Source of the DNA: an uncultured Candidatus Saccharibacteria bacterium
GTDB taxonomy: Bacteria; Patescibacteriota; Minisyncoccia; Phycocordibacterales; XYD1-FULL-46-19
Direction: 5' to 3'
Assembly: GCA_964510655.1 (NCBI GenBank)
Contig: CAZEAY010000003.1
Span: 18,924 to 82,923 of the forward strand
DNA: 64,000 nt
Shown here in pieces: positions 6,365-63,127 of this stretch; the first letter of the stretch is position 1; every line of letters starts with the position of its first letter. The position numbers and the translations under genes are program-made. The notes beneath the pieces were generated by a model. It saw nothing but the letters and a program-made list of their open reading frames with translations, was not told the origin of the DNA and ran no database searches.

Positions 6365-7423
6365 TTATTTACTTTTAGCGCGAATAGAAATTTTATGTTT
6401 CTCCATATCATCAGCCAATTCCATAATAACCGTCGCTAGTGGCACCGCCACCACCATTCCCAAAAAACCATAAAGTTCGGCCCCGGCCAAAAAAGACAGG
6501 ATAACAATCAATGGCGGAACTCCAATTACTTTTTTGGATACAAGTGGATAAATAACATGACTCTCCAGCTGTTGGATAACAATATAAAAAGCTAGGACAA
6601 TTAGACCCAGACCAGTACTTGTCGAAAAACCCAACAATACTCCCGGTACAGCAAAAAGGATTGGACCGAAGAATGGAATAATTTCAAAGACAGCTGACAT
6701 CAAACCTAAAGTGAGCGCAAATTTGACTCCTAGAATAGATAGGCCAAGCCAAACAGTCAGACCAACCAGTACCCCCAAAAGAACCTGCCCCTGAAACCAC
6801 AGACCAATTTTATTCTCAGTTCGATTCCATAAATTTAATAAATAGTCTTCATATTTCAAAGGGGTAACAATTCTTAAGAAATTCTCAATACCCTTCTCTT
6901 GGACAGCTAAATAGAAAGAAATGACTAAAATTAAAACGAAACTAAAAACGCCTCCAAAAATCACACTAGCGGTACTAAAAAGACTATCCGATAGTTGTAA
7001 AATAAATTTCTGGGCTTGAACAATGAGATCGCTAAGGGAAAAACTAGTCGCTAATCCGCCAGTAATAGAGGACAGTGGGTCAACCGTAGTACTAACCTGA
7101 GTAATGGCATTTAAACGCGCCGGCAAACCATTGGCTAGATCAGTAAGGTCGTTAAAAAGCGGGGGGAGAAGAAAAGAGAAACCAACAAAGATAACAGCAA
7201 AAAAACCAACATACAAAAGGAGAACAGCCCAAATTCGAGAGATCCGATATTTAGCCAAGAATTTCACCCCCTGTCCAACCGCCGTAGCAATAATTACTGC
7301 CACTAAAACAATCAGGATTAAACTTTGAAGTTTGTAGGCGGCCACCAAAACCAAGCCAATAATAATGGCTTTAATAATTGTGCCGGTGGTAATATTTACC
7401 GCTAAAGTCTTAGTGTTATCCAT
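6365..7423 (-). CDS. AI-2E family transporter (PerM/UPF0118)
   Basis: Eight-TM topology with the conserved LNL..R and VLLG... blocks typical of AI-2E/YhhT. Confidence 0.75.
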   Translation of the reverse strand: MDNTKTLAVNITTGTIIKAIIIGLVLVAAYKLQSLILIVLVAVIIATAVGQGVKFLAKYRISRIWAVLLLYVGFFAVIFVGFSFLLPPLFNDLTDLANGLPARLNAITQVSTTVDPLSSITGGLATSFSLSDLIVQAQKFILQLSDSLFSTASVIFGGVFSFVLILVISFYLAVQEKGIENFLRIVTPLKYEDYLLNLWNRTENKIGLWFQGQVLLGVLVGLTVWLGLSILGVKFALTLGLMSAVFEIIPFFGPILFAVPGVLLGFSTSTGLGLIVLAFYIVIQQLESHVIYPLVSKKVIGVPPLIVILSFLAGAELYGFLGMVVAVPLATVIMELADDMEKHKISIRAKSK

Positions 7424-7455
7424 AAAATAGATTAATTTTCCTTATCTAAATACTA

Positions 7456-8721
7456 CTACAGAGTCAAAATATCCACAAACTCTTGTTGATTATCATGAGG
7501 ACCTAAAATAACCAAGTTTATCCCTTTGGTCACAAATATTTTTTGCGCTAAAGTCTTAACATCTTGAGCTGTCACGGCTTTTATTTTTTTGCCAAGATCT
7601 TCAGGAGATAAGATTGTCTCTCCCCTAATTTCTTGAATACCATAAAAGGCAGCTAAATCTGATGGAGTTTCTAGGTTTAAATAAGTTGTCCCAATAAGAC
7701 TGTCTTTAACTCTAGCCAGCTCTTTTTCTGGAACCAATTCCCGCGTTAGTAAAATTATCTCATTAAGAATTGCCTTAAGGACTTCTTTCAATCTCAAACT
7801 TTGAACACCTCCAGAAATACTTAAATAACCATAGTCAGCAAAACTGGTTTGATAGGCGTTAATTGAGTAGGCCGCCCCCATCTCTTCTCGAACCTTTTGA
7901 AACAGACGAGAACTCATTGTTCCACCCAAAATTCCAGCTAATACTTCCGCGGTATAGTAATCGGGGTGACAAGAGCCAAAAGTTTTAAATCCTAAGACAA
8001 TGTTCGTCTGGGCTCCAAGTCGTTTTTTCAAAGAAAGCCTTGGGCCATTAGAAAGATTTTCTGTTTTTTCTACAGAAATGACCTCACCTTTTGCCACTGA
8101 GGAAAAATATTTTTCAATAATGTTCGGCAAATAATCTTGATCAAAATTACCCGCCACAACCACTAAAGTATTTTTTGCGTGATGGAACCTTTTTTGATAG
8201 TCTAAAAAAGCAGAACGATTTATTTTTTTTAAAGTAGACTCTGTTCCTAGAGTATTCCAACCATAAGGAGTATCTCCATACAGAAGCTCCACAAATAAGT
8301 CTTGGGCAACTCGACTAGGGTTATCAGCCGAACGATTTATTTCTTCTTCAATAACTCCACGCTCCTTTTCTATTTCGGACTCACTAAAAGAGGGGTTCAA
8401 ATACATGTCCGCCAAGATATCAAGAGCAGGCTCCAATTTGTCTGGCAAACAACTAACGTAATAGCCAGTATATTCCCGCCCAGTAAAAGCATTGTACTCC
8501 GCCCCCAAAGCATCCAACTCTGCCGACAAATCAATGGCCCGAGGACGTTTTGTCGTCCCCTTAAAACACATGTGCTCCATAAAATGAGAGATGCCATTAA
8601 GCTCTTTTGTTTCGTAATTTGAGCCAACCCCCACCAAGACTAACAAATTTACCGATAAACTATCGGGTCGAGGAACCATTATGAGCCGTAGATCATTATC
8701 TAAAGTAATTTTTTTGTACAT
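7456..8721 (-). CDS. M16 family zinc peptidase (insulinase-like)
   Basis: Inverted zinc motif HFMEHMCFKGT (HxxEH) near the N-terminus. Confidence 0.8.
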   Translation of the reverse strand: MYKKITLDNDLRLIMVPRPDSLSVNLLVLVGVGSNYETKELNGISHFMEHMCFKGTTKRPRAIDLSAELDALGAEYNAFTGREYTGYYVSCLPDKLEPALDILADMYLNPSFSESEIEKERGVIEEEINRSADNPSRVAQDLFVELLYGDTPYGWNTLGTESTLKKINRSAFLDYQKRFHHAKNTLVVVAGNFDQDYLPNIIEKYFSSVAKGEVISVEKTENLSNGPRLSLKKRLGAQTNIVLGFKTFGSCHPDYYTAEVLAGILGGTMSSRLFQKVREEMGAAYSINAYQTSFADYGYLSISGGVQSLRLKEVLKAILNEIILLTRELVPEKELARVKDSLIGTTYLNLETPSDLAAFYGIQEIRGETILSPEDLGKKIKAVTAQDVKTLAQKIFVTKGINLVILGPHDNQQEFVDILTL

Positions 8722-20404: not shown

Positions 20405-21577
20405 TTATTTTCTTAATACTCCATCTATCAATTGAGCTAATTTTATCATATCTTTTTCCTTTTTCCCTCGAGTGGTTTCCCCGGCCGTGCCAATACGCAA
20501 ACCAGATGGGTCAAACGGACTACGAGTATCAAAAGGAATAGTGTTCATATTTACAATAATTCCCGCTTTCTCTAACTTACCACTCGCTTCCTTACCACTG
20601 ATCCCCTTCCCCTCCATCCAAGTATCCATTAGAAACAAATGAGAATCTGTTCCTCCAGAAATTATTCTCCAGCCAATTTTTTTTAGTTCAGCCGCTAAGG
20701 TTTTTGTATTAACGATAATTTGTTTGGCGTATTTTTTAAACTCTGGCTTAGTGGCTTCATTTAGAGCGACGGCCACTGCCGCAATTTGATTCATATGGGG
20801 TCCACCCTGCAACCCCGGGAAAATTGCTTTATCAATCTTCTTACCCAATTCCCGTTGATCTATTTTTGAAAAAATTAGAGCCGACCGTGGTCCACGAAGT
20901 GTTTTATGAGTGGTAGTGGTCACAATATCGGCATAAGGAAAGGGCGATGGATAAACACCCCCAGCAATTAGCCCAGCCAGATGAGACATATCTACCATCA
21001 GATACGCCCCTACTGCATCAGCAATCGCCCGAAACTTTTTCCAATCAATCTTTCGGGGATAAGCGGTAAAACCCGCCACAATTATATTTGGTTTTTCCTT
21101 TTTTGCTTGAGTCATTAGAGCGTCATAGTCTAACATTTCGGTTTTTTTATCTACCTCATATAAAACAGATTCCCAAAATTTGCCAGTCGCCGAAACTTTT
21201 TGACCATGAGTCAGATGCCCGCCATGAGGCAAACTCATGCCCATAATTTTCCCACCCAACGGGACCAAGCCCAGATAAACGGCCAAATTGGCTGGTGATC
21301 CAGACAAGGCTTGAACATTCACCTGCCATTTAGCAGGAGATAATTTAAAAGCCTTAAGAGCGCGCTTCTGGCACAATAATTCAACTTTGTCAGTCACTTC
21401 ATTACCGCCATAATAGCGCTTGGCTGGGTACCCTTCAGAATATTTATTGACGAGTTTCGTTCCCAGGGCTTTTAAAACGTCATCGGAAACATAGTTTTCT
21501 GAAGCAATAAGATTTATCACCTTTTTTTGTCGAGCATCCTCAAGTTTAATCAATTTTTCAATTTCTTTGTCTTTCAT
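20405..21577 (-). CDS. glyA: serine hydroxymethyltransferase
   Basis: PLP-lysine block VTTTTHKTLRGPR and the SHMT N-terminal region. Confidence 0.95.
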   Translation of the reverse strand: MKDKEIEKLIKLEDARQKKVINLIASENYVSDDVLKALGTKLVNKYSEGYPAKRYYGGNEVTDKVELLCQKRALKAFKLSPAKWQVNVQALSGSPANLAVYLGLVPLGGKIMGMSLPHGGHLTHGQKVSATGKFWESVLYEVDKKTEMLDYDALMTQAKKEKPNIIVAGFTAYPRKIDWKKFRAIADAVGAYLMVDMSHLAGLIAGGVYPSPFPYADIVTTTTHKTLRGPRSALIFSKIDQRELGKKIDKAIFPGLQGGPHMNQIAAVAVALNEATKPEFKKYAKQIIVNTKTLAAELKKIGWRIISGGTDSHLFLMDTWMEGKGISGKEASGKLEKAGIIVNMNTIPFDTRSPFDPSGLRIGTAGETTRGKKEKDMIKLAQLIDGVLRK

Positions 21578-21581
21578 GTTT

Positions 21582-22271
21582 TTACCTAATTACCTTTTTA
21601 ATTACCTGGTAGACCAACTCATGAATTTTTTCTTTCGGTAAAATATTGCCAGACAAAGAACAATCGATTTTCTTCCAACGATTCCCTTTTTGCACAATCT
21701 CAATAGCGTTGGCCCGAGATTTTTCCAAATGGAGACGATCATTTTCCGCCTGATCTTTTTTTCCTTTTAAATATTTTTTCTTTTTAGCTTGATCTTTTAA
21801 TATTAATAGCTTCTGAGTAATTTCAATGGGGACGTCTAAAAACACAATCAAATTTGGCCTAGGAATATCAAACACTCCATATTCCATTTTATCCAACCAC
21901 CGTAAAAACTCTTTTCTCTTAATAAGATTAGAGATCTTACTCCCCTGATGAATTTGATTAGAACTTACGTAACGATCAGCCAGAACGATATAGCCTTCCG
22001 TAAGCCACTTTTTTATTTCTTTAGACGATTCAAAGCGATCAGCGGCATATAAAACAGAAGCGATATGTGGATCCAGGGCGATAAAATCACCATAATCCCC
22101 CACTAAACACTCTCCGATTAATTTCCCAAAAAAGTTTTTATCATAACGGGGAAAATCGATCTTTTTGACTTTATACCCATCTTTTTTTAAACGCTTCTCA
22201 AGTAATGACGTTTGAGTTGCCTTTCCAGAACCATCAGTACCATCTATTACAATAAATTTTCCCTTAATCAT
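21582..22271 (-). CDS. tmk: thymidylate kinase
   Basis: FIVIDGTDGSGKATQ P-loop and LADRY motif. Confidence 0.85.
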   Translation of the reverse strand: MIKGKFIVIDGTDGSGKATQTSLLEKRLKKDGYKVKKIDFPRYDKNFFGKLIGECLVGDYGDFIALDPHIASVLYAADRFESSKEIKKWLTEGYIVLADRYVSSNQIHQGSKISNLIKRKEFLRWLDKMEYGVFDIPRPNLIVFLDVPIEITQKLLILKDQAKKKKYLKGKKDQAENDRLHLEKSRANAIEIVQKGNRWKKIDCSLSGNILPKEKIHELVYQVIKKVIR

Positions 22272-22277
22272 GTTTAT

Positions 22278-23570
22278 TTATTTCTTCTCTAAAAGAGTTT
22301 GCATACCTCTTCGGACGTCCCAGTCATCTAGAGAACGATCAACATGAACAACTATATCAGGTAATAATTTTTTTAGTTTGTCGGCCATCTTATGCGCAAT
22401 TTTCCGTAGTGTCGGATGAACCATTTTACCAGACCGAAGTTCTATCACATAAACAGCGGCAGGTAGACCATAAGAAACTTTGCAGGTAACATTAAAGCCC
22501 ATCGCAATATAATATTGCAATTCTTCTTTTGTTGCCTTAAGCTTTTTTATCGCCGAAATTTGTTCTCTAATAAGTTTCTCGGCCTCCCCCCTCACCTTAG
22601 CAGGCAACTGTTCCAAATACCATTCATTAAAGCCATATTTGGTGGTAAGTAATGGCATCCGACAAACTCCATTTCGGTGTCTTTGAACATCACGAAAAGA
22701 ACCGAAATCAAGCAAAAACTCAAAAGAAACATTACCTAATTCCGACAAAAAATGCGGCAAACCAATTTTTTGTGGACGTTTTTTAATAACAGTCAGATAT
22801 TTTTTTAATTCTTCTTTTTTAATATTAGTCTTACCAAAAAAATCTCCGGCATAGTTTTTATCCAAAAAGTAATTATATTTTTCCAATAAAAATTTCCGAT
22901 AATTTTCCTGTTCGGGAACAGAAACATGACTAAAGCTTTGTGGATATTTTGTCCTGAGTTCAGCTAAAATTTTCTCTGCCTCCATCCTAATTTCTTTTAA
23001 TGGATGATGTTTTAATAAGACCAATTTATCATGAGCCTGTCTGAGGTTAGTATGCCAACTGTGTTGAGTGGTAATACCAGCCGGGAGAAACCCGCGCAAA
23101 GAATCAAATACTCGTGCCTTGATTGCTCGCCCATACATCCCCTCATCTTCATCAGGTTTCTTGGGGTATTTAGCCATCAAATGTTCCTCCATGGCCGATT
23201 GACTACCGATATAAAACTTCATCCATTTATCCAAAATCCCTTTAGATTCTTTTGTTTTGACCGGATCAATCACGGGCTGTTTAGAATAATCTATATAACG
23301 AGAGCTCGTCTCCTGACCAGAAAAAAGCGGCCAATCTTCAACCGCTTTAGCCGCCAGCATCGAGACACCCTCTAAAAAAATGGTGGTACTTCCACAGTCG
23401 GCAATACTCGCATGACCATAACCAACATAAAATTTTTCCATAAATTTACCGGACCCCGAAGCTCGAACCTTTTGAGCGTGTTCCTCGACACTGGCTCCAC
23501 TACGTGAATACAAGGCTTGCATCATAGCGGTATCTTGAGGACTAAATTCGTCGTAAATAAATACTTTCAT
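22278..23570 (-). CDS. thyX: FAD-dependent thymidylate synthase ThyX, tandem two-domain form
   Basis: The second half has the RHR motif (VQRHRNG). Both halves end with the ThyX C-terminal pattern (R.FLP...T..W.TN.R....L..L...P.KEI..EA..I...L...P and ELRSGKMVHPTLRKIAHKMADKLKKLLP). Confidence 0.7.
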   Translation of the reverse strand: MKVFIYDEFSPQDTAMMQALYSRSGASVEEHAQKVRASGSGKFMEKFYVGYGHASIADCGSTTIFLEGVSMLAAKAVEDWPLFSGQETSSRYIDYSKQPVIDPVKTKESKGILDKWMKFYIGSQSAMEEHLMAKYPKKPDEDEGMYGRAIKARVFDSLRGFLPAGITTQHSWHTNLRQAHDKLVLLKHHPLKEIRMEAEKILAELRTKYPQSFSHVSVPEQENYRKFLLEKYNYFLDKNYAGDFFGKTNIKKEELKKYLTVIKKRPQKIGLPHFLSELGNVSFEFLLDFGSFRDVQRHRNGVCRMPLLTTKYGFNEWYLEQLPAKVRGEAEKLIREQISAIKKLKATKEELQYYIAMGFNVTCKVSYGLPAAVYVIELRSGKMVHPTLRKIAHKMADKLKKLLPDIVVHVDRSLDDWDVRRGMQTLLEKK

Positions 23571-23576
23571 AGAAAA

Positions 23577-24134
23577 CTATTTAGCTAATAAGGAATTAAC
23601 AACTTTATCAACTTGAGAATAAAGAGAATCCAAACCAAAACTATTGTCTATTGTCAAATTGGTTTCTTTCATAACAATCGGAACTTCTCGATCGGCTTCA
23701 GCTTCATGATCAGCTAAAAACTGTTCATAACTCTTATCTTCATCTCCCTCATTTTCCCGACGAGAAACAAGGCGTTCGTAGCGGATTTTTGGGAGAGCAT
23801 CAATTGCGACCAAATAAAAATTTGACATGTCCTTTAAATATTTAATGTCCGCCAAACGTCGAACCCCATCAATGACAACAATCTCGGCTTCCAAATTTTT
23901 TGCATCCCCAACAATTACTCGAGCCAATAAATCTTCCCCAAAAGTCTGACGCAAGACAGTAGAAACCTTTTGCAGGTTTTCTCGATTAATAGGAGTCTCA
24001 ATTCTGGTCAAAACATCGCGCAAAATGGTTGAAAAACGACAATCTTTAGCCTGATATTGGTCTTCAATATATTTCTTCACTGTCCCCTTTCCACTAGCGA
24101 TTGGTCCTACGAGACCAAGAATAATTTTGGCCAT
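23577..24134 (-). CDS. P-loop nucleoside/nucleotide kinase, possibly (d)NMP kinase
   Basis: GLVGPIASGKGT Walker A, ~185 aa, sitting between thyX and dCMP deaminase. Confidence 0.5.
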   Translation of the reverse strand: MAKIILGLVGPIASGKGTVKKYIEDQYQAKDCRFSTILRDVLTRIETPINRENLQKVSTVLRQTFGEDLLARVIVGDAKNLEAEIVVIDGVRRLADIKYLKDMSNFYLVAIDALPKIRYERLVSRRENEGDEDKSYEQFLADHEAEADREVPIVMKETNLTIDNSFGLDSLYSQVDKVVNSLLAK

Positions 24135-24136
24135 TG

Positions 24137-24625
24137 TTATTTTTCTCGAACAAAAGAAGCTGATAAATACTGCCTCATTTTAACTCCCGCTAGTTTTAAT
24201 AGTCGCCGTCCAGACCGAAAGGCTGGCAAGTCAGCATACTTATCACTTTCATAAATCACTTCTTTAATCCCCGTCTGAATAATTGTTTTAGCACACTCAT
24301 TACATGGGAAAAGAGTGCAGTATAGCTTATCACCCTTTGTCTCTCGATTAGAATTATAAATGGCATTTTCTTCCGCATGACAAACATAAGCATACTTTGT
24401 TTTGTCAAAGTCACCCTCTCTTTCCCAAGGAAGTTCATCAGCATTGATTCCTCGCGGCCAACCATTGTAACCCAAACCAACTACCACATTATCAGGAGTA
24501 GCCACCACCGCTCCATTTTGAGTCGAGGGATCCTTAGAGCGCAGAGCGATGACGTGAGCCATCCGCATAAAACATTCATCCCAAGAAATAACATCTGATC
24601 GGGGTTTTATTCTTGTATTTTTCAT
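24137..24625 (-). CDS. dCMP deaminase (ComEB-like)
   Basis: Zinc-binding HAEENAI and PCNECAK motifs. Confidence 0.85.
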   Translation of the reverse strand: MKNTRIKPRSDVISWDECFMRMAHVIALRSKDPSTQNGAVVATPDNVVVGLGYNGWPRGINADELPWEREGDFDKTKYAYVCHAEENAIYNSNRETKGDKLYCTLFPCNECAKTIIQTGIKEVIYESDKYADLPAFRSGRRLLKLAGVKMRQYLSASFVREK

Positions 24626-51202: not shown

Positions 51203-52240
51203 ATGTCAAGTCTAGACCCTATCACCAACAATGACGAGCCAAACAATGGCTTAGATGAACGTTTTTTGGACAAATCACTCCGTCCGACTGTTTGGGATGA
51301 ATATATTGGGCAAGAGAGCATTAAGGATAATCTAAAGATTTTAATTGGAGCAGCCGCTGGGCGCAAACACCCACCAGAACATCTTCTTTTTTATGGTCCA
51401 CCAGGATTAGGCAAGACTACTCTCGCTCATTTGATTGCCAAACAAATGAATGCTCAACTAAAAGTCACCTCTGGACCGGCCGTAGAAAAAGTTGGTGACC
51501 TAGCTTCAATCCTAACCAATCTTTCTGAAGGTGATATTTTATTTATCGATGAAATTCATCGCTTAAACAAAATGATTGAAGAGGTTTTGTATCCCGCCAT
51601 GGAATCTGGGGTTTTAAATATTATTATCGGCAAAGGCCCGGGCGCGCGCGTAATCCAATTAGATTTACCACCATTTACCTTAATCGCCGCCACCACTCGC
51701 GTAGCTCTCCTCTCTTCTCCACTGCGCTCACGATTTTCCGGCGGAACTCATCGTCTAGAATTTTATACCGAAGCCGAGATTAAAAAAATTATTCTGCGTT
51801 CAGCAAAAATATTACAAATTGAAATTAGCGATGAAGCCGCTCTAGAGATTGCTCGTCGTGCTCGTTTTACTCCCCGGATTGCGAATCAACTCCTTAAACG
51901 TTGTCGCGACTACGCTCAACTTAAAAACAGTTCGATTGATTTAAAAATTGTTAAAGAGGCTCTTAATATGCTCGGTATTGATGAGATTGGTCTAACCACC
52001 CAAGATCGAAAAATTCTGGATATAATTATTTCCAAATTTAACGGTGGGCCAGTGGGTTTGGGAACAGTCGCTACCGCCATGAGCGAAGAAGATGCCACCA
52101 TTGAAGAAGTAAATGAACCCTACTTGATCCAACTAGGTTTAATGGAACGAACTCCCCGCGGTCGAGTCGCCACCAAAAAAGCTTATGAACATTTAGGGTA
52201 TGATTTCCCTAAAAACAAACAGGAAAGTTTGAGTATTTAA
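51203..52240 (+). CDS. ruvB: Holliday junction helicase RuvB
   Basis: LLFYGPPGLGKTTLA Walker A, DEIHRL Walker B, sensor and winged-helix C-terminus. Confidence 0.95.
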   Translation: MSSLDPITNNDEPNNGLDERFLDKSLRPTVWDEYIGQESIKDNLKILIGAAAGRKHPPEHLLFYGPPGLGKTTLAHLIAKQMNAQLKVTSGPAVEKVGDLASILTNLSEGDILFIDEIHRLNKMIEEVLYPAMESGVLNIIIGKGPGARVIQLDLPPFTLIAATTRVALLSSPLRSRFSGGTHRLEFYTEAEIKKIILRSAKILQIEISDEAALEIARRARFTPRIANQLLKRCRDYAQLKNSSIDLKIVKEALNMLGIDEIGLTTQDRKILDIIISKFNGGPVGLGTVATAMSEEDATIEEVNEPYLIQLGLMERTPRGRVATKKAYEHLGYDFPKNKQESLSI

Positions 52241-52284
52241 AAAAAAGAAACCCCTGGGCACATTTCTATGCACCAGGGGTTATT

Positions 52285-53916
52285 TCAAGCAATCGTCGCC
52301 CTCAAGACTTCATCCAATGAAGTTGTCCCGGCAAAAGCCTTAAGACAACCGCTCTGTCTCAGGGTTTTCATCCCCTGTTCGCAAGCGAGCTGTTTGATCG
52401 CATCTGTCGAATGACCGGCATGGATGAAAGTTTTGATTTTCTCATCGCAAACCAGGATTTCATGAATCGGGGTCACCCCCTGATATCCGTCATAACACGA
52501 CTGACAGCCCACTGGACCGCGAACTTGTTGCAAATAGTCGCCATCCTCCAAACCGAGATGTTTTACCATTTCAGTATTTGGCCGGCTAACTCTGGAACAA
52601 GCTTCGCAGAGTTTGCGAACTAATCGTTGGGCGATGATAACCTGAAGAGCATCGGCAATCATAAATCTGGGAATTCCCAAATCAACCAGACGAGAAACCG
52701 CCGACGGAGCATCGTTGGTATGCAGAGTTGAAAGGACTAGATGCCCAGTGAGAGCAGCCTGCAAAGCAACTCCAGCGGTTTCTGTATCTCGCATCTCTCC
52801 AATCATAATCACATCAGGGTTCTGCCTCAAGCAGGCCCGTAAGGAATTGGAGAAATTAAGCCCAGTTCTTTCGTTCGTCTGAGTCTGATTGATTCCCTTA
52901 ATTCGATACTCGATGGGATCCTCGATGGTGATGATCTTTTTATCACGCGTGTTCAGCTCATTAAGCAAGGCACACAACAGGGTTGTCTTGCCAGAACCCG
53001 TCGGTCCCGTCGCCAAGATCGCCCCATTAGGCTTTTGAATAAGGAGCCTTAACATTTCCACATCAGAGTCGCTCAATCCCATTTCACCCAATGTCTTTTG
53101 GGCATTCTTGGGATCAAGCAACCGAAGCGTCACCATCTCACCATATTGCGTCAAAAGAGTAGCGATCCGAATATCATAACTCTGATTACGGTATTCTACT
53201 CGAATGCTCCCATCTTGTGGATGACGACATTCTTCGATTTTCATTCCAGCCCGGCTCTTAAGGAAAGAGACCATACCGAGGAGCCAGCCCGATTTACAAG
53301 GAGGCTCAATGTCGCGCAGACACCCATCAATTCGATATCGAACCACCACACCGTCTTCCCATGGTTCGATACTGATATCTGAGGCACGCTCGCGAATTGC
53401 TCCACAAAGAATGGCCCCTACCAAGTGCTCATTCCCAACCACCTTCGGCAGAACACCTCCCTCTGGTAGGATAAGTTCTCCGGGACGCTCCCCAACAGGT
53501 GGAGGATTCTCGTTTGCTTTTACAATGACCTCCATCTGATTTCCCGCTTTGGAGTAAAACCTCTCAAGACAAATGAGAATATCTTTCTCCAAAGCGAGTA
53601 TCGGTTCGATTCCAACATCGCCAATCTCATAAGGAAGTCGATCTGTAAGCTCAAGGTTGCCCGGATCATTGGTGGCGACAGCCAAACGATTTGATTCGGA
53701 ATTGAACCTAATCGCCACGATACAATACTTCCGAGCAATCTCTTCAGGAATCATTTTGACCACAATCGGATCAAGCGATTCTGGTCTCAATTCCATTGGT
53801 TTGGGCAACAAGGATTGTTCAAAGGATGAAGAGATTGAGCCTGGATGAGCCGCATCTCCTATACGTTCCACATTCCTTGCCAATTGACCATCACCTCCAT
53901 TACCCGGTCGAGACAT
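52285..53916 (-). CDS. GspE/PilB-family secretion ATPase, GC-rich foreign-looking copy
   Basis: N-terminal GspII_E_N-like domain, ATGPTGSGKTT Walker A, and His and Asp boxes. Visibly ~50% GC. GAGGAGGG sits 7 nt before the ATG at 53914-53916. Confidence 0.85.
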   Translation of the reverse strand: MSRPGNGGDGQLARNVERIGDAAHPGSISSSFEQSLLPKPMELRPESLDPIVVKMIPEEIARKYCIVAIRFNSESNRLAVATNDPGNLELTDRLPYEIGDVGIEPILALEKDILICLERFYSKAGNQMEVIVKANENPPPVGERPGELILPEGGVLPKVVGNEHLVGAILCGAIRERASDISIEPWEDGVVVRYRIDGCLRDIEPPCKSGWLLGMVSFLKSRAGMKIEECRHPQDGSIRVEYRNQSYDIRIATLLTQYGEMVTLRLLDPKNAQKTLGEMGLSDSDVEMLRLLIQKPNGAILATGPTGSGKTTLLCALLNELNTRDKKIITIEDPIEYRIKGINQTQTNERTGLNFSNSLRACLRQNPDVIMIGEMRDTETAGVALQAALTGHLVLSTLHTNDAPSAVSRLVDLGIPRFMIADALQVIIAQRLVRKLCEACSRVSRPNTEMVKHLGLEDGDYLQQVRGPVGCQSCYDGYQGVTPIHEILVCDEKIKTFIHAGHSTDAIKQLACEQGMKTLRQSGCLKAFAGTTSLDEVLRATIA

Positions 53917-53976
53917 TTACCTGCCCTCCTCACGAATTTAGGATTTTTATCCAAAAGTTATGGGTTTAATTTACTC

Positions 53977-54008
53977 TGTCAAATATCTATATTCATGACT
54001 AGTTTTTA
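53977..54008 (-). promoter_or_regulatory. possible promoter of the GC-rich GspE-like gene
   Basis: Minus strand TTGACA (53977-53982), 16-nt spacer, TAACTT. Confidence 0.3.
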
Positions 54009-57615: not shown

Positions 57616-60111
57616 GTGCTAAGATTATTTTATATGATTAAAAACAAAAATTACCACCCAATCATCAAGGGTATTTTTATTATTTTAATTGGTTTTTTCA
57701 TCTTTTCTGGCTTTTCTGTTGTTTGGGCAATCTCTTTACCAATTCCTGATTTCAACAACTACTTTATTGACCTTAGTAAGGCTGAGCCAACCAAAATTTA
57801 TGACCGAACTGGCAAAGTAATGCTCTACAATATGAGTGGTTTGGTTCGTCGCACCCAGGTATCCCTGCCTCAAATTTCAAAATATATTAAGGCGGGTACA
57901 GTGGCAATTGAGGACGATACTTTCTACACCCATAAAGGGGTTAAACCAACCTCTATTGCTCGCGCTTTATGGGTAGATATTACTTCCGGTTCCAAAAAGC
58001 AAGGCGCTTCTACCATTACCCAACAGGTAGTCAAAAACACTCTTTTAACCAACGAAAAAACTATCACCCGTAAGATAAAAGAAATTGTTTTAGCGGTAAA
58101 AATGGAGCAAGAGATGACCAAGGACCAGATTTTGGAACTTTATCTAAACCAGATCCCCTATGGTGGAAATATGTATGGGGTAGAAGAAGCATCAAACACT
58201 TTTTTCAAAAAACATGCGAGTGAATTAACCTTAGCCGAATCGGCTTATTTAGCAGCTATTCCTCAGGCCCCAACCACCTATTCCCCCTACGGACAACATC
58301 GCGATCTCTTAGACGCTCGCAAAAATCTAGTATTAGACCGTATGGCCTCCCTTGGCTATGTCAGTAAAGAAGAGGCTGCCCGAGCAAAAAAAGACAAGGT
58401 AGTGTTTGCTCCAGTAGAATTTCACGGTATAAATGCTCCTCATTTTGTCTTCTTTGTTAAAGAATATTTAGAAGAAAAATATGGTGGAGCCACTCAAGTA
58501 GAAAAAATGGGCTTAAAAGTTACCACCACTCTTGATTATCCAACCGAACTAAAAGCTGAGGAAATTGTTAAAAAATACGGCACAGAAAATGAGAAAAACT
58601 TTAATGCTAAAAATGCTGCCTTAGTTGCCATTGACCCAAAAACTGGACAAATTTTAGCCATGGTTGGTTCCCGTGATTATTTTGACATGAAAAATGAGGG
58701 GAATTTCAATGTTGCCCTCGCTCATCGTCAACCAGGTTCCTCCTTCAAACCTTTTGTCTATGCTGCCGCCTTCAATCAAGGATACACCCCAAACACGGTA
58801 TTATTTGACCTGCCAACAGAATTTAACCCAAGTTGTCCACCTACTGACTCTACAAATAAAGCTAAGGAGTGTTATATGCCGGTTAACTATGATGCCAAGT
58901 ACCTTGGACCAATGTCTCTTCGTAATGCTCTAGCTCAATCCCGCAACATTCCTGCCGTTAAACTCCTTTATTTAGTGGGAGTAGATAATGCCCTAACAAT
59001 GGCCAAAAATATGGGTATCACTAGTTTAAAAGATAAAAACACCTACGGATTAACACTTGTTTTAGGAGGTGGAGAAGTTTCTCTTCTAGAAATGACTAGT
59101 GCTTATGGGGTTTTTGCGAATGATGGTGTTAGAGTTCCTTACACTGGAATTTTAAAAGTAGAAGATGCTAAAGGAAATGTTTTAGAGGAATACAAACAAA
59201 CCGGTGAAAGAATTTTACCAGAAAATACCGCTCGTGAAATTTCTAGTATTCTTTCTGACAACGTCGCTCGTACCCCCGCCTATGGTGCCAACTCACCACT
59301 CTACATTCCAGGACGTGATATGGCCGCCAAAACAGGTACAACCAACGATTTCCGTGACACCTGGATTCTTGGTTATACTCCAAACTTAGTCGTTGGTGCT
59401 TGGGCTGGAAACAACGACAATAGCCCAATAGCGAAAAAAGTGGCTGGTATGGTTGTGGCTCCAATGTGGGGAGCCTTCATGCGAGAAACTTTAGCTAATC
59501 TACCAAATGAAAAATTTATTCCACCCGATCCTATTGATCCAAATTTAAAACCAGTTCTACGTGGTATTTGGCAAGGAGGAATTACTAATCAAATTGGTGG
59601 ACTAGAACAAATTACCACAAACGTTCATTCTATTCTTCATTGGGTGAATAAAAACGATCCTTTGGGACCAGTTCCAAGTAACCCAGCCAATGATGGGCAG
59701 TATAAAAACTGGGAATATCCAATTAGAATTTGGGCGGCCAGCAATGGTTATACTGATTCTTCAGTTATTTCTCAACCAATTTCAAACACTGGGACAAGAA
59801 CATCAAATAGTCAGCCTATTGTCTCAATAATTAACCCCCTCCCCCAAGCCTCTTACAAGCCAACAGACAATATTAATGTTCAGTTAAATATTCGCAGTGG
59901 TGATTCACCAATCAAAAAAACTGAATTCTATGTTAATAGAACTCTAATAAACTCATCAAATAATAGTCAAACAAAATTTGATTTTGGTTTAGCTGAACTA
60001 GAAAATGTTAAAGAGACAAACGAATTAACGGTGATTGTTTATGACCAAAAAGGAAACAAGGCAGAGAATACAGTAAACTTCACCGTCGCCACCTCAACTA
60101 ATACCAACTAG
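57616..60111 (+). CDS. penicillin-binding protein 1A (transglycosylase/transpeptidase) with C-terminal extension
   Basis: GT51 motif EDDTFYTHKG, transpeptidase SSFKP...SRN...KTGT motifs, and an N-terminal TM. Confidence 0.9.
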   Translation: MLRLFYMIKNKNYHPIIKGIFIILIGFFIFSGFSVVWAISLPIPDFNNYFIDLSKAEPTKIYDRTGKVMLYNMSGLVRRTQVSLPQISKYIKAGTVAIEDDTFYTHKGVKPTSIARALWVDITSGSKKQGASTITQQVVKNTLLTNEKTITRKIKEIVLAVKMEQEMTKDQILELYLNQIPYGGNMYGVEEASNTFFKKHASELTLAESAYLAAIPQAPTTYSPYGQHRDLLDARKNLVLDRMASLGYVSKEEAARAKKDKVVFAPVEFHGINAPHFVFFVKEYLEEKYGGATQVEKMGLKVTTTLDYPTELKAEEIVKKYGTENEKNFNAKNAALVAIDPKTGQILAMVGSRDYFDMKNEGNFNVALAHRQPGSSFKPFVYAAAFNQGYTPNTVLFDLPTEFNPSCPPTDSTNKAKECYMPVNYDAKYLGPMSLRNALAQSRNIPAVKLLYLVGVDNALTMAKNMGITSLKDKNTYGLTLVLGGGEVSLLEMTSAYGVFANDGVRVPYTGILKVEDAKGNVLEEYKQTGERILPENTAREISSILSDNVARTPAYGANSPLYIPGRDMAAKTGTTNDFRDTWILGYTPNLVVGAWAGNNDNSPIAKKVAGMVVAPMWGAFMRETLANLPNEKFIPPDPIDPNLKPVLRGIWQGGITNQIGGLEQITTNVHSILHWVNKNDPLGPVPSNPANDGQYKNWEYPIRIWAASNGYTDSSVISQPISNTGTRTSNSQPIVSIINPLPQASYKPTDNINVQLNIRSGDSPIKKTEFYVNRTLINSSNNSQTKFDFGLAELENVKETNELTVIVYDQKGNKAENTVNFTVATSTNTN

Positions 60112-60151
60112 CCACATGATAAAAAACAACGACTGAATAAGTCGTTGTTTT

Positions 60152-60409
60152 TTATCTTATATCTTGTGGGGCATTCTGTTTTAAAATCTCTTTTAAATCA
60201 CGAAGTATATCCTTTTTATGAATAAAAACTTCTGATTTTAATTTAGTAGAAGTTTTTAAAAAAATAATATTATTACTTAAAGAAATATCTTTTTTTTCTA
60301 AGTTTATCTTAAAACACTTAGAAATAACTTCAATTACTGCTTCTTTTTTTAAGGAGTCAGTAGGAACAAGATTTTTATACTTAGAAAGTAGTTCCTTAAG
60401 GATAATCAT
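60152..60409 (-). CDS. small protein downstream of dnaN (DUF721/DciA-like?)
   Basis: 85 aa, 1-nt overlap with dnaN. The family assignment rests on position only. Confidence 0.3.
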   Translation of the reverse strand: MIILKELLSKYKNLVPTDSLKKEAVIEVISKCFKINLEKKDISLSNNIIFLKTSTKLKSEVFIHKKDILRDLKEILKQNAPQDIR

Positions 60410-61512
60410 TACCGATTGATTGGCATAATAATATATTGAAAGGTAGTATCTCCAATACCAACAATTAAAAGTGGTCGATTTTTTTCATTAAATTTCATCG
60501 CCACAGTATCGGAAGAAATTGACTGAAAACAATCTAGAATATACCGGGCATTAAAACTCATCTCAATATCCTCACCCTCTAATACCGCTTGTAAAGAAAT
60601 AGTATTTTCACCCACATCTTGGTTTTTAGAATTTAATTCAAAAATTTTACTTTGAGGTGAAATTTTAACATTTATTTGGTTAAATTTATCAGAAAAAATA
60701 TTAGACAATTTTAAAGCATTCATTAATTCATCCCGAGAAATAGTAACTTCTGTCTTAAATTTTTTCGGCATTATTTGTCCGTAATCTGGGAAATTACCAT
60801 CAATCACCCTTGAGGTAAAGTGAATATTGTCTGTATAAAAAGAAATTTGGTTTTTATTAGCCTCAATCTTAACTTCTTGATCAAGATTATCAAAAACCTT
60901 AATTATTTCAGCGACATTTTTAAAAGGAATAATTACCGACTGAAAATCTTTATTCTTTTCTCTAATAACCACCCTTTTTTCCGCTAAACGAAAAGAATCC
61001 GTTGCCACAAAAACTAATTCCTTATCATCTTGATAAATATAAACACTTGATATTTCTGGTTTTATATCAGACAAAGAAGCAGAATATAAAACTGACCGCA
61101 AACCAGTAACAATATCTTTTCCATTAAAAGAAAAAGAATTTCCATCTTCCACCCTTGGAATCACTGGAAAATCTTCTGCTGAATAACTTTTTATTAAAGT
61201 CGAGCTAGAACCAGTAGAAATATGAATATTTTCTTTAATTAATTCTAATTTTACTTTATCTTCTTTATTAAGATTACCTAAAAAACCACTTAAAATATTC
61301 GCACTAACAGCCACACTACCATTTTCCGTAATTTTAGCTGGTAACTCTATTTCTAAACCAACATCGAGATTTGTGGCTTTGATTACTAAAGCATTATCTT
61401 TTGCCTCTAAAAGAATTGAACTTAGAATTGGTAAAGATAGATTTTTTCCAGATACCCGCTCAGCGATACCAACAACTTCTTTTAGCTTATCTTTGATCAA
61501 TTCTAATTTCAT
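60409..61512 (-). CDS. dnaN: DNA polymerase III beta sliding clamp
   Basis: Three-domain ~367 aa protein with MKLELIKDKLKEVVGIAERV... typical of DnaN, adjacent to dnaA. Confidence 0.9.
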   Translation of the reverse strand: MKLELIKDKLKEVVGIAERVSGKNLSLPILSSILLEAKDNALVIKATNLDVGLEIELPAKITENGSVAVSANILSGFLGNLNKEDKVKLELIKENIHISTGSSSTLIKSYSAEDFPVIPRVEDGNSFSFNGKDIVTGLRSVLYSASLSDIKPEISSVYIYQDDKELVFVATDSFRLAEKRVVIREKNKDFQSVIIPFKNVAEIIKVFDNLDQEVKIEANKNQISFYTDNIHFTSRVIDGNFPDYGQIMPKKFKTEVTISRDELMNALKLSNIFSDKFNQINVKISPQSKIFELNSKNQDVGENTISLQAVLEGEDIEMSFNARYILDCFQSISSDTVAMKFNEKNRPLLIVGIGDTTFQYIIMPINR

Positions 61513-61765
61513 AGTATTAAATTTATTTTTTTTAAAAGAAGAAAAGTTATTGTTATAGTTGTTGTTGATAAGTGTACAAGTTAAATTTATCCTTATTTTA
61601 CAACTTTTATTGGGATAAATTTTATTTAATAAACTGGGGATAAGATGGGATAAATGAGTATTTTTTAATTTTTAATTTTAAGAGAGTGTTAATTTATCCT
61701 AAATTAATTAACTCCTTATCCTTAGTTTTTTAACAGATCTATCCACAAGTTATCCAGAACTAATT
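61513..61765. promoter_or_regulatory. DnaA-box cluster between dnaA and dnaN (oriC candidate)
   Basis: TATCCACAAGTTATCCAGA (61739-61760), GGGATAAGATGGGATAAATG, TTATCCTTA and TTATCCTAA in an AT-rich spacer. Confidence 0.5.
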
Positions 61766-63127
61766 TTAATTATTGTAAAGCAAGACTCTAATTTGATCTA
61801 TTTCCTGGCTAAGTAAGTCGTCACTCTTTATATCCCCTTTTATTTTTTCATAAGCGTGGATAACAGTGGTATGGTCTCTTCCTCCCATTTTTTGTCCGAT
61901 ATAAGGATAAGAAGTATTAAAATCTTCCCGTAAAATATACATAATAATTTGCCTTGGTTTAACAACTTCTTTTCTTCGGCTTTTTTCAAATAACATTTTT
62001 TCTTCAATGTTATAGAAATTGGATATTACACTTATCACTTCTTTAGTAGAGACGGTCTTTTGAGGCTTTATACTGTTCTTAATCAAGAGTTTAACCTCGG
62101 GGACTGTTAAGTTCTTGTTTTTGGCCTGTGATTGGCATATAACCGAATTTAAAGCCCCTTCTAGCTCACGAATACTGTCTTGAACAACAGAAGCTAGATA
62201 TTCTATTACTTCATCGGAGATTTGGAGGTTATTGTTTTTTACCTTAGAACGTAAAATAGCCAAACGAGACTCATAATCTGGTCTAGCCACATCAACAATC
62301 ATCCCCCCCTCAAAACGGGAGCGTAATCTTTCCTCTAGATTTTGGATATATTTTGGTGGTTTATCGGATGAAAAGATAATTTGCTTATTGTTTTCATAAA
62401 AACTATTGAATAAGTGGAAAAGTTCCTCTTGGGTTTTATCTTTGTTTGAGAAAAATTGAACATCATCCATAATAATCACATCATATTTTCGATATTTTTC
62501 CTTAAATTGCCCAACCTTATTGTTTATTACGGAATTTATGTAATCTGTAGAGAAAGTTTCAGAGGTTAAGTAGAAAATTTTCTTATTTTCATTTTGACGC
62601 TTGATATGATTGCCAATTGATTGAATTAAGTGGGTTTTACCCAAACCCGTCCCCCCATAGATGTATAGAGGGTTGTAGTTCATTCCTGGGTTCTTAACAA
62701 CCGCTTGAGCAGCGGCATAAGCAACTTCATTGAAAGGGCCAACAATAAATGATTCAAAGGTATATTTAGGATTTAAATTACTGTCCCTATTTACATATAG
62801 TTCGTTGAGGCCTAATTGATCGGTGGTGGCCATCTTAAGACTTTGTTCTTCAGCTGCTTTAGTTTTGTTTCTGTCTTCTATTTTAGAGATGGTGTACTCC
62901 AAAGCTCTTACCTCAGGAGAAGCATCTCTTAAAGCCTTAAGAATAAATTTATGATATTTGTTTAGTAACCAGTCACGAACAAAGGTGTTTGGGACACTAA
63001 GGTAGACCACCCCTTGATCTTGTTTTGAAATGAAAGTGTTTTTAAACCAGGTTCCGAAACTTGCCTTGGAAATTGTTAACTCTATCTCGGCCAGAGCCAT
63101 GTCCCAAAGTTTTTTGTTTTCTAACAT
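61766..63127 (-). CDS. dnaA: chromosomal replication initiator DnaA
   Basis: AAA+ GGTGLGKTHL, sensor motifs and the C-terminal DNA-binding domain (DHTTVIHAYEKI). Confidence 0.95.
   Translation of the reverse strand: MLENKKLWDMALAEIELTISKASFGTWFKNTFISKQDQGVVYLSVPNTFVRDWLLNKYHKFILKALRDASPEVRALEYTISKIEDRNKTKAAEEQSLKMATTDQLGLNELYVNRDSNLNPKYTFESFIVGPFNEVAYAAAQAVVKNPGMNYNPLYIYGGTGLGKTHLIQSIGNHIKRQNENKKIFYLTSETFSTDYINSVINNKVGQFKEKYRKYDVIIMDDVQFFSNKDKTQEELFHLFNSFYENNKQIIFSSDKPPKYIQNLEERLRSRFEGGMIVDVARPDYESRLAILRSKVKNNNLQISDEVIEYLASVVQDSIRELEGALNSVICQSQAKNKNLTVPEVKLLIKNSIKPQKTVSTKEVISVISNFYNIEEKMLFEKSRRKEVVKPRQIIMYILREDFNTSYPYIGQKMGGRDHTTVIHAYEKIKGDIKSDDLLSQEIDQIRVLLYNN

Follow-up and report, generated by a model that had tools for sequence, protein, structure and literature searches.

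A widespread fused ThyX-like protein whose active-site residues are divided between two diverged halves

A stretch of 64,000 nucleotides from an uncultured Candidatus Saccharibacteria bacterium (assembly GCA_964510655.1, contig CAZEAY010000003.1, positions 18,924 to 82,923 of the forward strand; hereafter the window) encodes an unusual member of ThyX, a family of flavin-dependent thymidylate synthases. The gene lies in a tightly packed, co-directional row on the minus strand that comprises, in the direction of transcription, a deaminase, a kinase-like protein, the fused thyX, tmk and glyA. The fused gene is divided as follows, the roles A, B and C being those of the three subunits that build a ThyX active site, as set out below.

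22278..23570, minus strand: whole gene of the fused two-domain ThyX, an open reading frame (ORF) with an ATG start and 430 amino acids (aa); the stop codon occupies 22278-22280
22926..23570, minus strand: N-half, aa 1-215, a ThyX domain in which roles B and C are kept and the RHR motif and the R174-type arginine are lost
22281..22925, minus strand: poorly conserved linker (about aa 216-279), C-half (about aa 244-405) and tail, with a ThyX fold and role A only

Canonical ThyX is a homotetramer with four active sites, in which an S-x-R-Y loop binds dUMP (deoxyuridine monophosphate) and caps the flavin. The reviewed structures of ThyX from Mycobacterium tuberculosis (Mtb) and Helicobacter pylori reveal that each of these sites is built from three subunits (PMC6514825). 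In the Mtb enzyme, subunit A provides R95-H96-R97 and R199, which contact the phosphates, ribityl and isoalloxazine ring of flavin adenine dinucleotide (FAD) as well as dUMP; subunit B provides the FAD contacts S71 and R190; and subunit C contacts dUMP through R87, the backbone of Q103, S105, R107 and the lid residue Y108 (PMC6514825). The ThyX of Paramecium bursaria chlorella virus 1 (PBCV-1) agrees with this arrangement, with Gln75 and Arg182 coming from monomer A and Ser88 and Gln89 from monomer B (PMC3498832). Canonical enzymes such as Thermotoga maritima (Tm) TM0449 (PDB 1O26/5CHP) and Mtb ThyX (2AF6/3GWC) consist of one domain of about 220-250 aa that carries all motifs, and their four sites are identical, whereas the fused protein has two diverged domains per chain, an RHRx7S motif split between them, and a predicted two sites per pseudo-tetramer.

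The assignment of both halves to the ThyX family is based on profile matches and on fold. The whole protein matches the Pfam family Thy1 (PF02511) in two stretches with 75.6 bits, exceeding the gathering score of 24.8. Taken alone, the N-half (aa 16-211) reaches 60.8 bits (E 2e-16), its match running from position 16 to 191 of the profile and covering nearly all of it, and hhalign aligns it with T. maritima ThyX, whose reference sequence was checked to be identical to 1KQ4/1O26, at E 1.2e-4 over 199 columns. Among the homologues, the C-halves of 18 out of 19 match Thy1 individually at E≤0.1 (best E 3.7e-5), and in the hhalign alignment of the C-half with the T. maritima enzyme RHR falls on RHR and ELRS on NLRA, the segment of R174. 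BLASTP detects no similarity between N-half and C-half and hhalign of their profiles is marginal (E 0.011-0.016); the presence of a second ThyX domain is therefore argued from family profile and fold, and it is only via these that the relatedness of the two halves becomes visible. Structure prediction settles the matter. The full-length AlphaFold2 (AF2) model of a single chain has a predicted local distance difference test score (pLDDT) of 83.4 and a predicted template modelling score (pTM) of 0.85, and the PDB fold matches of the predicted structure are all ThyX, with the ThyX-like PolB (PDB 4P5A) among the top structural matches. Mean pairwise identity amounts to 44% in the N core, 37% in the C core and 17% in the linker, and the two halves are under comparable constraint.

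An earlier sequence-only reading of this locus had recognized two ThyX-like halves in the 430-aa protein, and it stands: the Thy1 matches and the predicted fold agree with it, and neither half is an unrelated domain, since both adopt the ThyX fold in the structure prediction that it had called for. The sequence strings that it quoted are all present, with RGFLPAG...TKYP at aa 159-210 and SSRY at aa 89-92 in the first half, and YGLPAAV...KKLLP at aa 367-404 and VQRHRNG at aa 295-301 in the second.

The residues of the known three-subunit site were located by aligning the family profile with Mtb ThyX in HMMER and by hhalign to T. maritima ThyX, which define the following segments.

23406..23417, minus strand: G52-H53-A54-S55 (N-half, role B); H53 corresponds to Tm H53/Mtb H69 and S55 to Tm T55/Mtb S71
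23328..23336, minus strand: D79-W80-P81 (N-half, degenerate RHR), aligned to Mtb R95-H96-R97 and Tm R78-H79-R80
23295..23318, minus strand: G85-Q-E87-T-S89-S-R91-Y92 (N-half), the dUMP-binding loop and tyrosine lid, kept according to the alignments
23094..23096, minus strand: R159 (N-half), aligned to Tm R147/Mtb R172
23040..23051, minus strand: T174-N175-L176-R177 (N-half); R177 corresponds to Tm R165/Mtb R190, a role-B FAD contact
22674..22694, minus strand: R293-D294-V-Q-R297-H298-R299 (C-half), the kept RHR, placed by hhalign on Tm R78-H79-R80, with the positions equivalent to R74/Q75
22404..22442, minus strand: E377-L-R379-S-G-K-M-V-H385-P-T-L-R389 (C-half); R379 corresponds to Tm R174/Mtb R199, the dUMP-contacting arginine of role A

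Conservation was assessed in 63 diverse representatives sharing 34-53% identity with the query, on which the percentages below are based, and again, independently, in 60 distinct sequences drawn from IMG/VR contigs (31-57% identity). In the N-half, role B is represented by H53 and S55, both invariant (63/63 representatives and 60/60 viral-contig sequences), D58 (83%) and R177 (78%, 49/63). Role C is represented by Q86 (94%), E87 (97%), S89 (100%), R91 (100%), Y92 (97%) and R159 (97%); here E87, S89, R91 and Y92 are the equivalents of Tm E86, S88, R90 and Y91 and of Mtb Q103, S105, R107 and Y108, and the arginine equivalent to R159 is a presumed contact of the dUMP phosphate. The role-A positions of the same half have degenerated: D79 is found in 81% and P81 in 57%, residue 80 between them varies (N, S, W, T, H), and the equivalent of Mtb R199 is L186, with leucine in 84%. 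The C-half presents the reverse picture. R293, D294, R297, R299, R379 and H385, which probably corresponds to Tm H178, are 100% conserved, R389 98% and H298 97%, whereas the positions of the S-x-R-Y loop and the N163/R165 equivalents hold variable or hydrophobic residues, there is no GH-x-S motif, and the R147 position is occupied by a glutamine (Q352). The same pattern of kept and lost residues recurs in the 60 viral-contig sequences and in the proteins of the Vibrio jumbo phages BONAISHI and vB_VmeM-Yong.

A contiguous RHRx7S(xR) motif is thus present in neither half and is formed only when both are pooled. Together, the two halves supply the conserved set of site residues, namely R297-R299 and R379 from the C-half and S55, R177, S89, R91 and Y92 from the N-half; neither of them offers a basic counterpart to Mtb R87 of subunit C, M71 being at the N-half position in the HMMER alignment. 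The proposal that the two halves contribute different parts of the active site is in this way supported by the conservation in 63 homologues, 60 viral-contig sequences and two jumbo-phage proteins, and the split extends beyond RHR versus the serine motif to R174/R199, R147/R172, H53, T55/S71 and R165/R190 (Tm/Mtb numbering where paired). The sequence-only reading was right that the second half keeps RHR (R297-H298-R299) without the serine of S-x-R-Y, as alignments and family conservation demonstrate, and that the first half keeps SSRY (S89-R91-Y92). Its placement of PLF at the lost RHR of the first half was two residues off; both the HMMER alignment to Mtb ThyX and the hhalign alignment to T. 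maritima ThyX rule this register out, and the true one is D79-W80-P81. By the residues retained, the division is asymmetric, with one role (A) kept by the C-half and two (B and C) by the N-half, so that a complete site would need two N-halves and one C-half.

The most economical account of these observations, to which we assign a probability of about three in four, is that the protein is a catalytically active, flavin-dependent thymidylate synthase composed of two diverged, fused ThyX domains, which works as a homodimer with two composite sites. The fused chain would be a pseudo-heterodimer, and two chains would form a pseudo-tetramer. If subunits A to D of a D2 tetramer contribute roles A, B and C to the first site in the order (A; B; C), symmetry implies (B; A; D), (C; D; A) and (D; C; B) for the remaining three. 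With the C-halves at A and D, on one diagonal, and the N-halves at B and C, on the other, each role in sites 1 and 4 would be filled by a domain that retains it, giving two complete sites for FAD and dUMP, each combining one C-half with both N-halves; in sites 2 and 3 every role would fall to a domain that no longer has it, giving two dead sites devoid of catalytic residues. Two intact sites, two dead ones and none half-built are what the observed retention pattern of the halves predicts. The working unit would be a homodimer because a single chain cannot provide both the role-B and the role-C N-half, and about one FAD per chain is expected. Dimer and sites are deduced from published structures and D2 symmetry, and the stoichiometry of two sites per dimer and the catalytic activity should be understood as predictions on that basis.

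The genes that surround the fused thyX are those expected of a pathway to deoxythymidine monophosphate (dTMP). The counts given with them refer to the 80 best of at least 578 related loci in species-representative genomes.

24137..24625, minus strand: deaminase of the dCMP (deoxycytidine monophosphate)/cytidine type, upstream; Pfam dCMP_cyt_deam_1, 76.2 bits; beside the fused gene in 45/80 loci
23577..24134, minus strand: 185-aa P-loop nucleotide-kinase-like protein, upstream; Pfam AAA_17/AAA_18; 48/80 loci
21582..22271, minus strand: thymidylate (dTMP) kinase, tmk, downstream; Pfam Thymidylate_kin, 74.3 bits; 47/80 loci
20405..21577, minus strand: serine hydroxymethyltransferase (SHMT), glyA, downstream, which regenerates methylenetetrahydrofolate (CH2-H4folate); Pfam SHMT, 538.5 bits; 23/80 loci

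Some of these assignments fall short of curated thresholds: the kinase-like protein matches NCBIfam PRK08356 with 77.6 bits, below the cutoff, and tmk is below the cutoff of two NCBIfam dTMP kinase models, the better being NF005923 (119.5 bits, cutoff 193). The deaminase presumably supplies dUMP. In the proposed scheme the fused enzyme would convert this dUMP to dTMP with CH2-H4folate from the co-transcribed SHMT and pass the product on to the thymidylate kinase. As the operon supplies substrate, one-carbon donor and consumer, and as the association recurs in related loci, dTMP synthesis is most likely the activity of the fused protein. A tblastn search of the window and of the 80 related loci, flanks included, with E. 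coli ThyA and T. maritima ThyX as queries yielded no second thymidylate synthase; it covers small parts of the genomes, and the T. maritima probe (E<0.01) missed the fused gene as well.

The kinase-like protein also matches positions 2-207 of NCBIfam NF041025 ('anti-phage dCTP deaminase', 437 aa) with 29.9 bits, and the adjacent 162-aa deaminase matches the C-terminal part of the same model with 84.4 bits (best stretch 330-385), the cutoff being 400 in both cases; the pair, which accompanies the fused thyX in about 45-48 of the 80 loci, looks like a split version of NF041025. On viral contigs, the neighbours of the fused gene include the large and small subunits of ribonucleotide reductase (contig L161), an NAD-dependent DNA ligase (L136) and a 5'-deoxynucleotidase (L092). 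At locus L032, a homologue of dihydrofolate reductase (7294-7755) that is 40% identical to E. coli FolA over 154 columns lies directly downstream of the fused thyX; ThyX is not known to yield dihydrofolate, which makes this neighbour unexpected. The base composition of the window departs from its GC background of about 0.38-0.40 at 60001-62000 (0.283) and at 52001-54000 (0.466).

Three other explanations of the fused protein were weighed. The same composite site could have been turned into a methylase or hydroxymethylase of another pyrimidine, be it uridine monophosphate (UMP), dCMP or, in phages, a modified base. There is a precedent in PolB, the UMP/dUMP C5-methylase of polyoxin biosynthesis, which has the ThyX fold like the fused protein and illustrates a shift of substrate within the family; it is however a single-domain protein, and the context of the fused gene points to dTMP synthesis rather than antibiotic synthesis. 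We consider such a shift improbable, given that the dUMP-contacting set S89, R91, Y92, R159, R297 and R379 is invariant or nearly so, that dCMP deaminase, thymidylate kinase and SHMT, a dTMP pathway, flank the gene in genomes of the candidate phyla radiation (CPR), and that no other thymidylate synthase was seen in the 64-kb window. The authors of the BONAISHI genome, moreover, report no DNA-modification genes and list ORF269, the fused protein of this phage, together with a thymidylate kinase as its proteins for thymidine biosynthesis (PMC6207643). Somewhat less likely still is that the C-half has a scaffolding or regulatory part without catalysis and has kept an RHR-like string by mere chance, in which case the protein would be a pseudoenzyme or its N-half would pair with a separate ThyX partner. 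The sub-threshold Thy1 match and the absence of the GH-x-S and S-x-R-Y motifs lend themselves to this explanation, and so do sequence and profile searches of the PDB with the C-half, which returned chance matches only (IF-1, Sm proteins) and none that is significant. It is difficult to reconcile with the seven role-A residues of the C-half, which are 97-100% conserved among sequences that are 31-57% identical and are exactly those that the N-half has lost; an N-half alone, lacking RHR, would be unable to bind FAD canonically, and a second thyX-like gene for the partner was not detected in the window or the 80 loci by the T. maritima probe, blind as it was to the fused gene too. That the ORF is an artefact, in which two adjacent thyX-like genes were joined by a sequencing or assembly error or a miscalled stop, has nothing but the unusual length in its favour. 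It is refuted by the uninterrupted architecture of about 430-500 aa, aligned as a single stretch, in hundreds of 50%-identity clusters, and the same architecture is found in 3436 database proteins, at no fewer than 578 loci and in complete genomes of cultured phages; we give this possibility practically no weight.

Several observations nevertheless weigh against a catalytic homodimer of fused ThyX domains. When the halves are compared with the ThyX profile, as the sequence-only reading had suggested, the N-half is clear, but the C-half alone reaches only 18.9 bits (E 1.4e-3, profile positions 61-190) and thus remains below the gathering score, its case being supported by the 18 of 19 homologues. 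Its hhalign match to T. maritima ThyX is likewise weak (E 1.2e-3 over 163 collinear columns), and modelled alone it attains a medium-confidence pLDDT of 66.9. The equivalog model for thyX, TIGR02170, matches the N-half only, with 35 bits (E 9.8e-9) and a cutoff of 87.9, and by this curated NCBI criterion the fused protein is not an orthodox ThyX; Pfam score and fold place it in the family, the TIGR02170 cutoff and a contiguous RHRx7S do not. R177, on which role B partly depends, is conserved in just 78%, another thymidylate synthase is possible beyond the 64 kb examined, and the open-access literature searched yielded no biochemical data for any family member. Finally, a number of positions that would lie in the dead sites are 95-100% conserved, in the N-half K75 (the Tm R74 position), H189 (H178) and E193 (E182), and in the C-half R265 (near GH-x-S), Q352/Y353 (the R147 position) and Y374 (the N169 position). 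This is a difficulty because a simple decay model predicts no such conservation.

The family-specific residues S22, R23, D156, D288 and Y318 are also 95-100% conserved, and a further conserved element is found at the very end of the protein.

22299..22313, minus strand: C-terminal tail R420-R421-G422-M-Q424, with R421 in 63/63 and 60/60 sequences

In the AF2 model the pLDDT drops below 50 for aa 421-430 (22281-22310), which hold R421, and for aa 44-60 (23391-23441), which hold H53 and S55. Judging from the model, the C-terminal tail is probably flexible, and the low values in both segments fit a ligand-dependent ordering of the FAD/folate-binding loop and the C-terminal tail. The conserved residues of the dead sites may be structural. 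Alternatively, the dead sites could have been repurposed as a second pocket, for NAD(P)H, a nucleotide or an allosteric ligand, or as a structural lock, a tentative idea that we raise with considerable doubt and that stems from the 95-100% conservation of dead-site residues and R421 at 31-57% overall identity. If true, the protein would be a functional hetero-oligomer with divided labour and not a half-active ThyX.

A survey of related genomes, another of the steps suggested by the sequence-only reading, shows that the fused architecture is widespread in the ultra-small CPR bacteria (Patescibacteria) and also occurs in jumbo phages. At E≤1e-3, 3436 database proteins match; the best 120 of them share 65-100% identity with the query at lengths of 394-449 aa, and the named ones among these 120 belong to Patescibacteria, Paceibacterota, Parcubacteria or Minisyncoccia and are annotated as 'FAD-dependent thymidylate synthase'. 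The representatives of 50%-identity clusters number 1997 at E≤1e-3 and at least 507 at E≤1e-30, and the top 150 mostly measure about 430-500 aa and align with nearly the whole query, in most cases as a single stretch. Relatives are encoded at 578 or more loci of species-representative genomes, and the best 80 are nearly all labelled as Patescibacteria, Falkowbacteria, Moranbacteria, Uhrbacteria, Komeilibacteria, Taylorbacteria or unclassified metagenome-assembled genomes (MAGs); some third-party annotation (TPA) bins carry the labels Saccharibacteria, Gammaproteobacteria or Bdellovibrionales and one record the label Bacillota, labels that could not be verified. Certain members are longer than the query by 90-230 residues (P0152 with 657 aa, P0131 with 590, P0134 with 549, P0239 with 547, P0230 with 531 and P0217 with 524); P0217 and P0230 align in two to three stretches, which suggests insertions, and others of the long members align in one stretch and have terminal extensions.

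Among viruses, 95 relatives reside on viral contigs of IMG/VR, which reach 363 kb and include two giant-virus MAG bins; loci L082-L161 are IMG/VR contigs, and the relatives are often annotated as hypothetical proteins. The fused protein is carried by cultured Vibrio phages, namely BONAISHI with a genome of 289 kb and four isolates of vB_VmeM-Yong with 278-291 kb, and the Microcystis phage Mvi-JY20 encodes a more distant relative.

L162, 3899-5341: BONAISHI ORF269
L163, 2929-4314: protein of vB_VmeM-Yong MS32

BONAISHI ORF269 (AXH71010.1) and the vB_VmeM-Yong protein QAX97196.1 belong to the same family, with 32-33% identity over 95-97% of the query and an identical pattern of kept and lost residues. 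They differ from the bacterial protein in their length (461-480 aa, with extra insertions) and in their setting among ORFans of 278-291 kb genomes instead of a dTMP operon, and their annotation reads 'thymidilate synthase-like protein' or 'hypothetical protein'. The only PHROG match is phrog_36506 ('thymidylate synthase', a profile of 491 positions), which aligns solely at its positions 39-189/210, both with the N-half of the query and with that of ORF269, and which may stand for a further family of long ThyX-like phage proteins. The BONAISHI paper gives a Parcubacteria protein as the best BLAST match of ORF269 and is silent on the architecture of the protein (PMC6207643). Since the family is shared and this best match is parcubacterial, the distribution suggests that CPR bacteria and phages have exchanged the gene.

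The nearest analogue in concept is the monomeric deoxyuridine triphosphatase (dUTPase) of herpesviruses, in which a trimeric enzyme of nucleotide metabolism with active sites between its subunits was duplicated and fused with complementary motif loss, turning a three-site trimer into a one-site monomer; fold and reaction are unrelated, and in the case of ThyX the change would be from a four-site tetramer to a two-site dimer. The long chlamydial ThyX, of about 529 aa, is possibly another one of double length and is a lead at most. In the open-access full texts searched, no paper was found that describes a fused or pseudo-dimeric ThyX. Overall, the widespread fused form is a real and apparently new variant of ThyX, carried in the databases as plain ThyX or as 'hypothetical protein'.

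ThyX is an antibacterial drug target and is unusual in having an active site made from three subunits. In the fused form, evolution has distributed the three site roles over two domains, a natural experiment on the ThyX site and a clear case of duplication, fusion and complementary degeneration within one protein; this would open half-site stoichiometry, communication between subunits and the minimal catalytic unit to experiment. The family also exposes a gap in annotation: as it scores far below the TIGR02170 cutoff, cutoff-based metabolic reconstructions of CPR bacteria and jumbo phages could miss thymidylate synthesis. Its occurrence in CPR bacteria as well as in jumbo phages, some of which infect cultivable Vibrio hosts, provides a tractable entry for experimental work.

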